From Chthoniobacterales bacterium (GTDB taxonomy: Bacteria > Verrucomicrobiota > Verrucomicrobiia > Chthoniobacterales > JACTMZ01), in NCBI GenBank assembly GCA_021463515.1, contig JAJTYZ010000112.1, positions 1,764 to 65,763 on the forward strand: a DNA stretch of 64,000 nt. The letters run 5' to 3'. Both the position numbers and the translations under genes were made by a program. Below are positions 1,173 to 29,898 of the stretch, in pieces; position 1 is the stretch's first letter; every line of letters starts with the position of its first letter. The notes beneath the pieces were generated by a model. It saw nothing but the letters and a program-made list of their open reading frames with translations. It did no database searches and was not told where the DNA came from.

Positions 1173-2102
1173 TTACCTAATCTCACCCTGCCATCCTTTT
1201 GGTTTAGCAGCGTGTCGGCCACTGATAAAAAACTTGCGAAATGTCACCCGCTTCACAGGTTGTCGTTTTTTCCAATAACTCGATGCTAATTTTAGGAAAT
1301 CCCAGACACCAAACAATCCGGAGTAAAACTCCTCTCCTCCCCCTTTCCATCCCCAACACACTTGGTTAATAGCTTTCCCTGGCAAATAATATAACACCTG
1401 CGGCATGGGGACACGCAGTAATGCAAAAATCAAATCATTCAATGTCCCGGAGCGATGCTGCTTTCCCCAATTCCGCCCACTCGTAGTTTTATCATGCCAA
1501 ACATGCACTCCGGGCAAAAATCGAACAACCCATCTATGATCCAAAAATCGCAGGCACAAATCCTTTTCTTCCGAACCATAATACCCAGGAAACTCCGCAT
1601 AATTTCCCACTTCTAAAGTATAACTTCGTCTCAAAACATGCCCACATCCCACATAACCCAAAGCATCCTTACCCACCTCACGTGCCACCTTCTTCGGGCG
1701 ATCCGGTGACAAAATATCAAATGCTACTCCCGCTACTTTGGTATCCTTCTCAAACTCACGCGCAGCCATCTCAATCTCATCTCCCCGCATAAACCAAGCA
1801 TCATCGTCCAAGCTACAAAACAAATCAAACCCCTCCATCTCCAACATCCGAGCCCGCGAATCAATCAACGACAACTCCTCTTCCGGCACAAAATGCCGAA
1901 TCCCCGGAAATCGTGCGATAATCTTCCCATTCTCCCTCCGCATCTCCTCTGTCCCGGAGTTATCCCACACCATCACATCAATCAATCCATAAGACTGCTC
2001 CAAACACGATTCCAAACACTTAGGCAAATATTCCGGTCTATCCTTCGTCACAATCCCCACACGCACCCGCAACTGCCCACTAATTTCCTCTTCTTTCAGC
2101 AT
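1173..2102 (-). CDS. Glycosyltransferase family 2
   Basis: VGIVTKDR...VWDNS, SLDDDAWF DxD motif, SEEKDL; start uncertain because the N-terminus overlaps a repeat arm. Confidence 0.85.
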   Translation of the reverse strand: MLKEEEISGQLRVRVGIVTKDRPEYLPKCLESCLEQSYGLIDVMVWDNSGTEEMRRENGKIIARFPGIRHFVPEEELSLIDSRARMLEMEGFDLFCSLDDDAWFMRGDEIEMAAREFEKDTKVAGVAFDILSPDRPKKVAREVGKDALGYVGCGHVLRRSYTLEVGNYAEFPGYYGSEEKDLCLRFLDHRWVVRFLPGVHVWHDKTTSGRNWGKQHRSGTLNDLIFALLRVPMPQVLYYLPGKAINQVCWGWKGGGEEFYSGLFGVWDFLKLASSYWKKRQPVKRVTFRKFFISGRHAAKPKGWQGEIR

Positions 2103-2135
2103 CTCAATCTCCCCCCCACTGACAACTGCCAACTT

Positions 2136-2687
2136 TCATACCTTCCCCCCAATTTCCCTCGCTGGAATCCCAGCAACTACGGTTTCGGCAGGCACATCTT
2201 TAGTCACCACGGCACCAGCTCCCACCACCGCGAATTTGCCAATACGAACATTCCGTAAAACTTTAACACCCGCGCCCAGCCAAACTCCATCTTCAATGAT
2301 CGTCTCCCCGAGTCTCATCGGTTGACTTTTCACATCTTTTCCTTCCACCGGCGTATGGTCCGAGTCCGTGATAAAACACATCGGTCCGATCATCACATTC
2401 GATCCTATCCAAAGTTTGTTGGATGCATCAAGAATCGTGTGGCGGTTAATATACGTGCCACAGCCGATCCGAATTTTATCCTTTTTGGGTAGCCCGCTCG
2501 CCAAAATTGTCACCCCACGATCAAGAGCACATCCCTTGAGTGTAATATCCGCCCAATGACGAGGAATTTCAATCTGGCGCATCCAACAATACTTTTCAAT
2601 ATTCACCCCTAATGCTCGGTAATAGAGATTGCGCCAGCGCGAAGCACTTCCCATACAGAGACGATGGAGGAGATGGATTGGATTCAT
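2136..2687 (-). CDS. Hexapeptide-repeat (LbH) O-acetyltransferase
   Basis: IEDGVWLGAGVKVL..IGKFAVVGAGAVVTKDVP..VAGIPAR. Confidence 0.9.
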   Translation of the reverse strand: MNPIHLLHRLCMGSASRWRNLYYRALGVNIEKYCWMRQIEIPRHWADITLKGCALDRGVTILASGLPKKDKIRIGCGTYINRHTILDASNKLWIGSNVMIGPMCFITDSDHTPVEGKDVKSQPMRLGETIIEDGVWLGAGVKVLRNVRIGKFAVVGAGAVVTKDVPAETVVAGIPAREIGGKV

Positions 2688-2691
2688 AACT

Positions 2692-3642
2692 TCAAAATGG
2701 CGGCAAAGACCGCCCTACCAAAATATCAAAGTATCCGAGAAGCGAACCTTTCAGAACTCGCCACTGTTTTGGATTGTGTAGGCTCCCAATCATTGTAGCG
2801 ATCATTTGAAATGCGCCCCAGATCATAAGCCAAACCCAATATCTAAATCCTTGAATTCCCTGCACGCGGCGCGCCACAAAATCTCTATTAACCACGCCCA
2901 TCCTCGCCACCCTTGCAAGATCAGATTTATGGCTTCCTGTTTGAGTATCATGAAAAATCCGTGCCGTTCGCGCATTGACCAATTTCCATTTTCTAGCCAC
3001 CACCAATGACAAAGCCACATCTTCCATCATCGAATATCCGGTGAACATTGGATCAAATGGAGGATCAGGCAAAGCCTCACGACGATACAGTGTAAGTCCC
3101 AAATTTAGCCACCCCACCGAAACCACGTCCGGCATTTCTTCACGATCTGCTGGAAGAAGATTCACCGCAGGCCCAAAAATCTTTCCCGCATAATCCGGTC
3201 CTAAGCCACCACCAATCAGCCGGTAAACAAGCCGCGAAACTCTGCCAGGTTCATGATATTTCTGATTCGTAATCATTGCGCTGGCACCACCGTTATCCGA
3301 AGCCAAGTGTAAAGCATTCCAAACGCGCTCCAAAGCATGTGCCTCCAGAACAACATCATCATCCGCAAAACCAATAACATTCTCACGCACCAGACCCACT
3401 CCTTGATTTCGCTGAGCCGCAGCACCCCGCTGCTTGGCTGGAATACATAGTACCCTCGCGAACAAATCAAACCGTTCCTGCATCACACGGCATACCTCTA
3501 CGGTTTGAGTGTCCGACGAAGCATCCACCACCATGATTTCGCGTGGCCACACACCTTGAATCAATACAGATTCCAACATCTGTTGCAAAACAGCAGAACG
3601 CCCCGAAGTCGGGATCACCAGACTAAGGGGCAACACCTTCAA
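2692..3642 (-). CDS. Glycosyltransferase family 2
   Basis: SLVIPT..VVDAS, AAQRNQG, FADDDV, MEDVALS. Confidence 0.9.
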   Translation of the reverse strand: MKVLPLSLVIPTSGRSAVLQQMLESVLIQGVWPREIMVVDASSDTQTVEVCRVMQERFDLFARVLCIPAKQRGAAAQRNQGVGLVRENVIGFADDDVVLEAHALERVWNALHLASDNGGASAMITNQKYHEPGRVSRLVYRLIGGGLGPDYAGKIFGPAVNLLPADREEMPDVVSVGWLNLGLTLYRREALPDPPFDPMFTGYSMMEDVALSLVVARKWKLVNARTARIFHDTQTGSHKSDLARVARMGVVNRDFVARRVQGIQGFRYWVWLMIWGAFQMIATMIGSLHNPKQWRVLKGSLLGYFDILVGRSLPPF

Positions 3643-4376
3643 GTTGTGACCTCCCTAAGCACCCGCCAAAATCCCTCCCGAATCTTCACCGGGTCAAAAT
3701 CGCGTCTCCCTGCCTCTACAGCCCGCTTCGCCAGCCCAACCCTCAACTCTCCATCTGTCTTCAATCTTTGTAAGCACGCCACCAATTCCTCACGCGTGGT
3801 GCACGAAACCACCCCATTGGGGTAAAAATTGAGAAATTCTAAAACGCTAAAACGTTGCAATAATCCAACCCTTTCAGCATTTCCATTTTTCAGCTTTTCA
3901 GTTTCTTCACCTTTCAGCTTTCCCTCCCCTGTCAACTGCCCACTGCCAACTGCCAACTCCTCTACCCCACGCCCATATCTCACTCCGGTAGCAAACTCCG
4001 GCCCCGACACCACCACGGGCATCCCCAGTCCCAAATACTCCGTTAACTTACTTGGAAAATGCGTACGGTAAAGCATCTCATTATCTCCAGCAGGATTTGA
4101 ATAAGGTAAAATCATCACATCCGCCCGTTCCTGCATCGTGCGCCACATTTCTAGGATATTCATACGATGCGGCATCCATTCCACAACATCCGTCGCCTCC
4201 AATAATCCCTTTAACTTATACGGCGGTCGCGGTGTCGAAGTCAAAACCTTAGCATTCACCTCCCGCAACACCGGAATCAACGCCATCAACGCTTCCCCAT
4301 ATCCATAAGCCACCGATCCTGCATATCCCAGCGTCAAAGTCCCCACCCCATTTCCAGTATTCTCCTCTTGCTTCAT
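3639..4376 (-). CDS. Glycosyltransferase (GT-B/GT4-like), C-terminal half, with an in-frame repeat insertion
   Basis: LGYAGS, ADVMILP, FPSKLTEYLGLGMPVV; same frame as 4452..5093. Confidence 0.75.
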   Translation of the reverse strand: MKQEENTGNGVGTLTLGYAGSVAYGYGEALMALIPVLREVNAKVLTSTPRPPYKLKGLLEATDVVEWMPHRMNILEMWRTMQERADVMILPYSNPAGDNEMLYRTHFPSKLTEYLGLGMPVVVSGPEFATGVRYGRGVEELAVGSGQLTGEGKLKGEETEKLKNGNAERVGLLQRFSVLEFLNFYPNGVVSCTTREELVACLQRLKTDGELRVGLAKRAVEAGRRDFDPVKIREGFWRVLREVTT

Positions 4377-29417: not shown

Positions 29418-29462
29418 GGGGTTCTTGGTTCTTGGTTCTTGGTGCTTGGTGCTTGGTTTTTG
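29418..29462. repeat. Tandem heptamer array (GTTCTTG/GTGCTTG on +), downstream arm of four-helix cassette 2
   Basis: gg gttcttg gttcttg gttcttg gtgcttg gtgcttg gtttttg. Confidence 0.9.
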
Positions 29463-29466
29463 AAAA

Positions 29467-29833
29467 TTAATCGGCGTTGAGGAGGTATTTGATAAATCCT
29501 CCGATTTTTGCGTAAGTCAACCGGGCAAGCTCGTAGAGTTCTTCAAATTTGGATGGCGAGATATATTCCTGATCCAATGCGACATAAAGCTGACTCTGTA
29601 CTTCGCTGCAGGAACGCTGGGCATAGCGGAGGAACTTGATAAACTCCGCCCTACTGCCACTATCAAACCCTTCGGCAATATTGTGCATAATGGAGCCGGC
29701 CGCCCTCGTGATCTAATCCCGCAAACCAAAGTCACGACTAAATTTCTCCGAGGCAACAGCCGCATAAATTGAGCGCGTCAAGTTCCCTCGCCAATTTCCA
29801 AGCCTCAATCTCCTCGAACCGCGTAATTTTCAT
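29467..29833 (-). pseudogene. Four helix bundle protein pseudogene
   Basis: MKITRFEEIEAWKLAREL, +1 frameshift near 29780, then TRSIYAAVASEKFSRDFGLRD*ITRAAGSIMHNIAEG; TAG at 29713-29715 where the intact paralog has Q. Confidence 0.85.
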
Positions 29834-29837
29834 ACCC

Positions 29838-29898
29838 ACCAAAAACCAAAAACCAAGAACCAGGAACCAAGCACTAAGAACCAGAACCAAGAACCAAA
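29838..29898. repeat. Tandem heptamer array (ACCAAGA on +), upstream arm of four-helix cassette 2, inverted relative to 29418..29462
   Basis: accaaaa accaaaa accaaga accagga accaagc actaaga accaga accaaga accaa. Confidence 0.9.

Follow-up and report, generated by a model that had tools for sequence, protein, structure and literature searches.

Four-helix-bundle genes between inverted heptamer arrays in a Chthoniobacterales glycan operon and at gene junctions of other bacteria

Cassettes and repeat modules in the window

A 64,000-nucleotide stretch of a Chthoniobacterales genome (GCA_021463515.1, contig JAJTYZ010000112.1, positions 1,764 to 65,763, here C16:1764-65763), referred to below as the window, carries two genes of the four-helix-bundle protein family PF05635, each bracketed by inverted arrays of tandem heptamers. 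We refer to such a gene and its two arms as a cassette. The genome measures 2.11 Mb in 140 contigs with 52.5% G+C and is about 66% complete. Genes were called by script as the longest open reading frames (ORFs), with no gene finder, and starts as well as some antisense ORFs in high-G+C genomes are unreliable. The features of the two cassettes, in window coordinates, are as follows.

14408..14758, minus strand: intact four-helix-bundle gene, 116 aa, cargo of cassette 1 (PF05635, E 2e-27)
14769..14806, minus strand: upstream arm of cassette 1, GGCAGTN-type heptamers (sequence reading; profile match 14740-14818)
14378..14406, minus strand: downstream arm of cassette 1, CTGCCAA/CTGACTA heptamers (sole inverted copy, sole plus-strand profile match)
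29467..29833, minus strand: broken four-helix-bundle gene, cargo of cassette 2 (PF05635, E 3.4e-25; three-frame translation)
29838..29897, minus strand: upstream arm of cassette 2, GGTTCTT x 8.7, period 7 (Tandem Repeats Finder, TRF; sequence)
29420..29462, minus strand: downstream arm of cassette 2, AACCAAG x 6.1, period 7 (TRF, sequence)

The protein encoded at 14408-14758 matched PF05635 with 95.9 bits (curated cut-off 33.8), TIGR02436 with 98 bits (cut-off 24), NF008912 with 145.8 bits (cut-off 124) and PDB entry 2gsc with an E-value of 1.5e-14; PF05635 was the sole family found in it. Its closest named relatives, from uncultured Verrucomicrobia, share 81% and 75% identity. Both arms of cassette 1 reach into the neighbouring genes, as the upstream arm contains the stop codon (14793-14791) of an rmlD-like gene (14791-15708) and the downstream arm contains the ATG (14390-14388) of a GT2 glycosyltransferase gene (13332-14390). 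The arms of cassette 2 are made of a different heptamer; the upstream one holds the stop codon of the upstream gene (29876-29874), and the downstream one stops 2-3 bases ahead of the ATG of a GHMP-kinase gene (28437-29417, Pfam). The gene of cassette 2 bears two lesions: the frame changes beyond codon ~18, and a TAG lies in frame at 29715-29713. Even so, this cassette has the best-preserved arms. The arms of cassette 1 are imperfect (local alignment score only z 2.4); their predicted duplex amounts to -37.7 kcal/mol, and the minimum-energy fold of the cassette RNA is closed by them (z -2.35). The predicted fold of cassette 2 is also closed by its arms (z -5.81, equalled by 0 of 100 shuffles). 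The original prediction had described two four-helix genes, the second a pseudogene, each bracketed by inverted arrays of its own heptamer; the family matches, TRF and the two lesions agree with that description, and by the predicted folds gene and arms form a unit closed as an RNA panhandle. Pfam searches of the neighbouring genes revealed no recombinase adjoining either cassette.

Two further loci of the same genome resemble parts of these cassettes. Arrays of the AACCAAG type, whose heptamer is identical to the arm heptamer of the broken cassette 2, precede five successive small genes at C23:2200-3640, where each array ends just before an ATG and the coding strand is C-rich. A further four-helix gene lies in two frames (two adjacent profile matches) at a contig end, C88:14249-14556, directly upstream of a gene for a GT4-like glycosyltransferase; its upstream flank is lost at the contig end.

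Around cassette 1, a GGCAGTN/CTGAAA module of 55-100 nt is found in seven sense copies and one inverted copy, all in window 2072-15843. A profile made from the seven copies matched the 2.11 Mb genome at 8 positions with E<1e-3, the next best match having E 0.17; the eighth, inverted place is the downstream arm of cassette 1, and the other seven lie on the gene-sense strand. The plain pattern GGCAGTNGGCAGT, allowing at most one mismatch, gave 11 matches genome-wide, 7 of them in this 14 kb stretch. Orphan arms had been proposed to form one repeat family, usually joined to an 8-mer family: the profile upholds the single family, and the 8-mer part proved degenerate (65% matches, TRF). They had also been said to share one polarity on the mRNA and to lie at gene ends or inside glycosyltransferase genes, which is what we observed (7/7). 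Four modules (M1, M3, M4 and M6) fill gene junctions as whole spacers and two (M2 and M5) lie in frame within glycosyltransferase genes.

2072..2156, minus strand: M1, spacer between an acetyltransferase gene (2136-2687) and a GT2 gene (profile, Pfam)
3865..3970, minus strand: M2, heptamer and 8-mer arrays in frame in the C-terminal half of a split GT4-type glycosyltransferase (TRF, profile)
4370..4446, minus strand: M3, between the N-half (4452-5093) and the C-half (3639-4376) of one GT-B enzyme (Pfam, homologue alignment)
13284..13358, minus strand: M4, stop of the GT2 gene 13332-14390, ahead of the next gene's probable ATG (profile)
14179..14256, minus strand: M5, in-frame array insert of ~15 aa behind the DDxS motif of the GT2 gene 13332-14390 (Pfam)
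15746..15843, minus strand: M6, 86-nt spacer between an rmlC-like gene (15795-16349) and the rmlD-like gene 14791-15708 (profile, Pfam)

In the GT2 gene beside M1, the Pfam match begins at residue 25 of the called ORF. Alignment of eight homologues showed the M2 insert in frame in P0001, P0006 and P0013 and missing from P0052, P0030 and P0002. M3 provides a stop and a new ATG at the inter-domain linker, so that the GT-B enzyme is encoded by two ORFs; Pfam found only the GT4 N-domain in 4452-5093 and weak GT1 matches in 3639-4376. Full-length homologues (385-605 aa) cover both halves, with other low-complexity inserts at the same three spots. M5 cuts the Pfam match into two stretches and appears as a 15-residue gap against another GT2, that is, a loop insert. 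Orphans had been suggested to act as RNA-structure elements, a suggestion not supported by the self-folding of the modules, which was not notable (z -1.1, -3.2, -2.6, +0.5, +0.5 and +0.5).

We compared window 1500-17500 with contigs from three DNA runs, each of a different study. One contig covers the whole stretch with 37 base differences, and no indel, joint or inversion was found in any, although contigs may hide rare variants; contig breaks near repeats were not counted as signal. Since an independent contig reads the whole 16 kb without an indel, the split of the GT-B enzyme is not an assembly error. For annotation, both this split and the arrays inside glycosyltransferase genes are real features of the population.

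Every gene from window position 1 to ~36 kb is on the minus strand, with a G-rich coding strand. A Pfam scan of the genes delineated one long glycan operon at 1-29.4 kb, which comprises five GT2 genes, one GT1 gene and one split GT4 gene, rmlC-like and rmlD-like genes, a DegT aminotransferase, an epimerase, many methyltransferases, two hexapeptide acyltransferases, a Wzm/Wzt ABC exporter and a GHMP kinase, with 4-base overlaps at many junctions. Strand asymmetry is very strong at 1-4000 and 14000-16000 (GC skew of -0.32 to -0.37 on the plus strand), and much of the operon has a G+C content of 42-49%, below the genome mean. At the wzm/wzt junction of the window (21913-22006), the genes are separated by 94 nt that contain a 9-mer repeat (ACGGATAAG-like, 2.8 copies) but lack a four-helix gene; in Planctomycetota and one congener, this junction carries four-helix cassettes.

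Empty and filled junctions within the genus and across phyla

A third four-helix gene of the genome lies on C77 between sdhA and sdhB, with GTTGAGR/YCTCAAC arms. In 24 congeners, the sdhA/sdhB junction was empty in 14 (stop, 2-10 bases, ATG, no array; one form is TAAccATG) and filled in 8, where arm, gene and arm extend exactly from the stop to the ATG. The remaining 2 are gene-less and retain a piece of the downstream arm beside hairpins like repetitive extragenic palindromic (REP) sequences. Cassette states are scattered on an sdhB tree of 23 congeners (L139, with a partial sdhB, was excluded), on which branches with good support require a minimum of 5 changes. Furthermore, cassettes 76-81% identical in amino acid sequence to cassette 1, with the same arms, occupy three different junctions in three congeners, namely rmlD/GT2, another gene/GT2, and wzm/next gene. 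These comparisons show that arms and gene arrive together at an otherwise array-free site.

REP-like hairpins occur elsewhere in the genome as well. Those built on GTAGAACGAGTTTTCCAACTCGTT flank an IS200-like gene (C42:131-850; of the REP-associated tyrosine transposase, RAYT, type, with an HVHL motif) and its neighbour (together C42:131-1512), and both C133:9800-10843 and the decayed sdh sites of the two congeners L124 and L127 contain similar hairpins.

The PF05635 family is present in 33 of 41 genomes (40 relatives and the window's own), usually in several copies. Inverted arms with z>4 and a best period of 7 were found at 25 of the 30 evaluable loci from the 40 relatives (2 of 32 loci were dropped for short flanks). 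The sites include sdhA/sdhB, metK/ahcY, aldehyde dehydrogenase/amidohydrolase, the junction between two T2SSE ATPase genes, and rpoN/Mrp-like ATPase. A search with the window protein retrieved 80 loci from Planctomycetota, Verrucomicrobiota, many Pseudomonadota, Thermodesulfobacteriota, Nitrospinota, a metagenome-assembled Pedobacter genome and others; use of this single query biases the set to one protein clade. Arrays were scored for all 80 loci and inverted arms for L036-L080 only. In these other phyla, 29 of 44 evaluable loci carried inverted period-7 arms with z>4 (45 were scored, and 1 was dropped for short flanks). The heptamer was very often GGCAGTN/ACTGCCN, and Pseudomonas loci carry AAGCNNC heptamers directly upstream of cysNC. 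Two of three plasmid loci read also fit the arm design, with GGTTCAA/TTGAACC arms in Riemerella and GGGAAAA/CCCTTTT arms in Nostoc ATCC 53789; the plasmid locus of Nostoc PCC 7120 did not fit.

A flank score of at least 28 was reached at 44 of 74 loci, compared to 7 of 1741 genes of the window's genome used as control, in line with the expectation that a scan of relatives would find periodic arrays enriched at four-helix genes. One of these 7 control genes is cassette 2 itself, and two of the top ones examined are REP-flanked. The cassette design is therefore general across several phyla, at least six of which share the architecture. A glycan-type neighbour was found at 24 of the 80 loci, and the order wzm-gene-wzt occurs in both Planctomycetota and Verrucomicrobiota. 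The proposed tie of four-helix genes to glycan loci thus stands insofar as the clade recurs there, but the same design lies in unrelated junctions: it is neither peculiar to the glycan operon nor a glycan-specific device. The downstream neighbour is co-oriented with the four-helix gene in at least 58 of 73 loci (crude ORF calls) and at 8/8 filled sdh sites.

Some loci hold clusters of these genes. Stretches of ~20 kb each contain four four-helix genes in a congener (G012:C33:87566-107845) and six or seven in Novipirellula (G048:C1:2409424-2432300), and because of these two clusters we consider that loci with several cassettes, like the pair in the window, are not rare. At L055 and L062 (Desulfobacterota), inverted arms were not detected; at both, the four-helix gene sits between two ORFs of ~960-990 aa, the downstream one being an Eco57I/MmeI-type restriction-modification methylase.

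Correspondence between heptamer and protein clade

On a tree of 111 proteins (L035 and proteins shorter than 85 aa were left out), the heptamer family changed 32 times, compared to a mean of 67.3 for shuffled labels, and none of 200 shuffles gave so low a count. The ACTGCC/GGCAGT clade spans Planctomycetota, Verrucomicrobiota and Pseudomonadota. Our results show that heptamer type follows protein clade across phyla; as kin share labels, the result is one of clustering and not of co-evolution as such. The four-helix protein is under purifying selection, as shown by median dN/dS values of 0.11 and 0.10 at a dS of ~1.1-1.2, a distance at which the arms still keep their heptamers. The median isoelectric point (pI) of 112 proteins is 8.5, mildly basic.

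Cognate arrays also gather around the gene. In a Novipirellula genome (9.5 Mb, 11 family members), GGCAGTN arrays gave 40 matches, compared to 0 for the control, and 35 of the 40 lie within 30 kb of the one cognate gene, so that the local array network of the window is repeated in another phylum. Ten other loci have extra arrays of the same family near the cassette, and GGCAGT arrays stand beside the gene in G012, in G006 (both with an orthologue of at least 76% identity) and in the window's genome. All 9 Pseudomonas genomes with the gene, among 61 compared, contain at least 41 cognate-array matches; one Pseudomonas genome has a single family member and ~17 places with AAGCNNC arrays, many of them gene-less close inverted pairs. 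Within the window's genus, CTCAAC-array matches have a median of 47 in genomes with the sdh cassette versus 10 in those with an empty site, with exceptions. Finally, the window's genome has 43 period-7 arrays of at least 2.7 copies, 38 of them intergenic and 26 located at most 60 nt upstream of an ORF start (crude calls). Most are G-poor in the sense strand and most have no four-helix gene nearby.

An inverted array pair with no gene was seen at C79:12520-12600 (GAAGAGT and TTTCACT types, ~30 nt apart), inside a long ORF call. This pair is an 'empty' foldback like those in Pseudomonas.

Candidate portable units and the rival explanations

We lean, by a small degree, towards the reading that each cassette is a portable insertion unit of gene junctions, akin to the intervening sequences of 23S rRNA, and that the orphans are derived solo arrays. 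The unit would consist of an inverted array of the cognate heptamer, the PF05635 gene and the complementary array, the same make as ORF-bearing intervening sequences, and would lodge exactly between two co-transcribed genes. Its 5' arm would abut or contain the upstream stop codon, and its 3' arm would abut or contain the downstream start, acting as its leader. In the operon transcript, the arms may pair into a panhandle that sets the neighbours' stop and start side by side, and the insert would be tolerated for this reason. RNase III may cut the panhandle, as in rRNA, and the protein may bind its own heptamer arrays and be needed to keep or spread them. Movement of the cassette, binding by the protein and cutting by RNase III are what we infer from these comparisons. 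We read the orphan repeat runs of the window as loose relatives of the cassette 1 arms, probably spread locally as solo or derived arms, and the modules as derived solo arrays that now serve as intergenic spacers or are simply translated in frame as loop inserts.

Passages of PMC4990558 describe an ORF-bearing, stem-bounded 23S rRNA intervening sequence of Leptospira and Coxiella whose protein belongs to PF05635, and its discussion raises the ORF as part of a mobile element. The cassettes share with it the protein family and the enclosure of the gene by complementary sequences that form a long stem, here a predicted one. Unlike it, both cassettes of the window lie between protein-coding genes, from stop to start, in an mRNA operon, and their arms are tandem heptamers. 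The Avd protein of diversity-generating retroelements (DGRs) has the same fold and binds nucleic acid and reverse transcriptase, according to passages of PMC10053308. However, the window protein gave no match to the Avd model NF033474, for which the sdh-site paralogue scored 25.2 bits against a cut-off of 80, and a Pfam scan of 30 neighbouring genes revealed no reverse transcriptase domain. A four-helix gene is also tabulated, with no comment in the part of the paper covered, in a Riemerella capsule locus (PMC13688083).

Other repeat systems offer partial parallels. In the REPIN/RAYT system, a single-copy gene is flanked by inverted cognate short repeats, gene-less copies are dispersed, and protein and repeat match family by family. 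The four-helix gene likewise lies between inverted copies of its cognate repeat, with more copies elsewhere in the genome, but its protein lacks an HUH or other known catalytic motif (only PF05635 was found), its repeats are tandem heptamers and not palindromic, and arrays persist where the gene was not found. Rickettsia palindromic elements are short repeats inserted in frame in protein genes, and the termini of foldback transposons are inverted tandem short repeats. M2 and M5 resemble the former in lying in frame in protein genes; unlike foldback transposons and miniature inverted-repeat transposable elements, the cassettes have no transposase that we could find and no target duplication at the filled sdh sites. 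Intergenic heptamer direct repeats are described in passages of PMC4679880 (TAACTGA, upstream of start codons in Beggiatoaceae, Cyanobacteria and Bacteroidetes) and PMC4692102 (GGGAATC arrays in Xanthomonas, with 70-75 convergent pairs). These share with our arrays the period of 7, a mostly intergenic location often just upstream of starts and some inverted pairs, and the TAACTGA repeats have the CAGT/ACTG core as well. The tandem 7-mers of the window's genome, 38/43 of them intergenic and 26/43 near starts, have the features of such leader repeats (TAACTGA or short tandemly repeated repetitive, STRR, type). The terms '23S' and 'four helix' were not found in a term search of either paper. What is new here, added to the known heptamer repeats, is the arrangement with the gene in the middle and the contrast of empty and filled sites.

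Several observations weigh against the portable-unit reading. Clear inverted arms are missing at about a third of the loci examined. No target-site duplication was found at the filled sdh sites read, no catalytic domain could be recognised in the PF05635 protein, and homologous recombination of flanking genes would likewise yield patchy states. Covariation and G·U analysis of arm pairs, put forward as a check of RNA function, gave no positive sign. Paired arms of 96 loci comprised 2501 Watson-Crick pairs; of the remaining positions, 118 were G·U, 146 were A·C and 365 were mismatched in other ways, so that G·U was not in excess over A·C. Within a heptamer group, cognate arms paired no better than non-cognate arms, with median duplex values of -56.8 vs -56.2 (30 Pseudomonas loci), -57.3 vs -46.2 (22 loci) and -61.3 vs -59.3 (7 loci). 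An arm paired best with its cognate in 0/30, 2/22 and 2/7 loci. This comparison says little about selection, since all arms of one family can pair with each other and even shuffled partners gave a median of -41.5. We found no sign of selection on RNA pairing of the arms. In some loci (L036) the arms are homogenised separately and differ at the seventh base, and in others (L008 and L013) the order of variant units is mirrored exactly between arms. The kept part of the arm heptamers is a core of 5-6 bases, for which recognition of a sequence, or copying that recurs from one arm to the other, is no worse an explanation than a stem.

The distribution of arrays raises further difficulties for the same reading. 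Among the 52 Pseudomonas genomes in which we found no copy of the gene, 18 also had at least 41 cognate-array matches, with up to 340, and genomes in the co-occurrence counts are related, so that tests and p-values overstate. Congeners G010 (23 matches vs 6 for the control) and G023 (13 vs 0) have GGCAGT-like arrays with no close orthologue found, which indicates that arrays are not strictly gene-dependent; the 2-mismatch GGCAGT pattern used in congeners also picks up related CAGT heptamers. Moreover, the extra arrays at the ten other loci are mostly ACTGCC in gene sense (24 vs 6), opposite to the 7/7 GGCAGT-sense copies of the window, which counts against an origin of the window modules from arms.

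An explanation that we regard as unlikely, and still take seriously, is that the repeats are independent and the gene a passenger: arrays would arise by slippage and persist as unstructured leaders before start codons, pairs of them would form hairpins in which the gene lands or survives, and the orphans would owe nothing to it. The intergenic position of 38/43 arrays, the 26/43 within 60 nt upstream of an ORF start and the lack of a nearby four-helix gene at most of them speak for it, as in the groES/groEL spacer and the five successive spacers on C23, and Pseudomonas has many gene-less inverted pairs and arrays without the gene. Such leaders were described by MacGregor in 2015, in passages of PMC4679880. 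The empty sdh junctions, with no array at all, imply instead that the arms came with the gene; heptamer type tracks protein clade across phyla and not host, and in this genome, as in Novipirellula, GGCAGTN copies are confined to the surroundings of the cognate gene. Somewhat less probable, in our opinion, is a host regulator, in which the 116-aa protein would bind GGCAGU arrays at junctions of the operon mRNA and co-ordinate translation of glycan genes by binding or directed processing. The single mRNA polarity of 7/7 orphans, located at junctions or in glycosyltransferase genes, the local array cluster around the cognate gene in Novipirellula too, the recurrence of the clade at wzm/wzt and beside sugar genes, and a conserved, mildly basic protein (median pI 8.5 over 112 proteins) are all compatible with regulation. 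Against it, unrelated housekeeping junctions hold the same design, the other polarity prevails among orphans elsewhere, in-gene copies are translated and the modules unstructured, and cassette 2 has the best-preserved arms despite its broken gene.

The original prediction went further and proposed that the arms vary the surface glycan, either as recombination points or by being looped out. A DNA switch, with inverted arms as sites for inversion or cassette exchange, strikes us as highly improbable. Its appeal lies in a segment of a glycan operon flanked by inverted repeats, and in the cognate cassette found at different glycan junctions in three congeners. Neither both orientations nor a nearby recombinase, as expected of an invertible switch, was found for the cassettes: the downstream neighbour is co-oriented in at least 58/73 loci (crude ORF calls) and 8/8 filled sdh sites, Pfam of the neighbours gave no recombinase, and the contigs of three DNA runs over window 1500-17500 showed no joint, indel or inversion, although rare variants may be hidden. 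Glycan variation by arms is unsupported too; the sdhA/sdhB, metK/ahcY and rpoN/mrp-like junctions and the site upstream of cysNC hold the same design. Translational bypass or RNA looping-out, suggested by arrays inside two glycosyltransferase genes, has hardly any chance of being correct, because nothing needs bypassing: neither M2 nor M5 disturbs the frame, three homologues have M2 in frame as well, M5 is a simple 15-residue loop insert, and M3 splits its enzyme at an inter-domain linker where homologues carry other inserts.

Our comparisons also show that tightly coupled junctions such as sdhA/sdhB, metK/ahcY and wzm/wzt, as well as the site directly upstream of cysNC, can accommodate a 450-nt gene, and insertion there bears on how operon translation tolerates inserts. 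We also put forward, tentatively and with more doubt than confidence, that PF05635 proteins may, throughout bacteria, act in trans as the partners of foldback repeats made of heptamer arrays, in the manner of RAYTs and REPINs. Each clade would recognise its own 7-mer, and from a copy with the gene there would arise arrays and hairpins without it, which would last as leaders and loop inserts; an ORF-bearing intervening sequence of 23S rRNA would be this element in rRNA. The shared architecture in at least six phyla, the empty versus filled sites and the co-clustering of protein and repeat are what link the two. We found no literature connecting the family to flanking heptamer arrays, in a search that barely covered subscription journals and did not cover supplements. 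To our knowledge, the large and widespread PF05635/TIGR02436 family has no known role outside DGRs, and we know of no accepted cause for the over-representation of heptameric tandem repeats in bacteria. Tying the family to the repeats gives both a testable function and, if true, the partnership of protein and repeat would explain a 30-year-old orphan protein family together with the surplus of heptameric repeats that has long been noticed in bacterial genomes.

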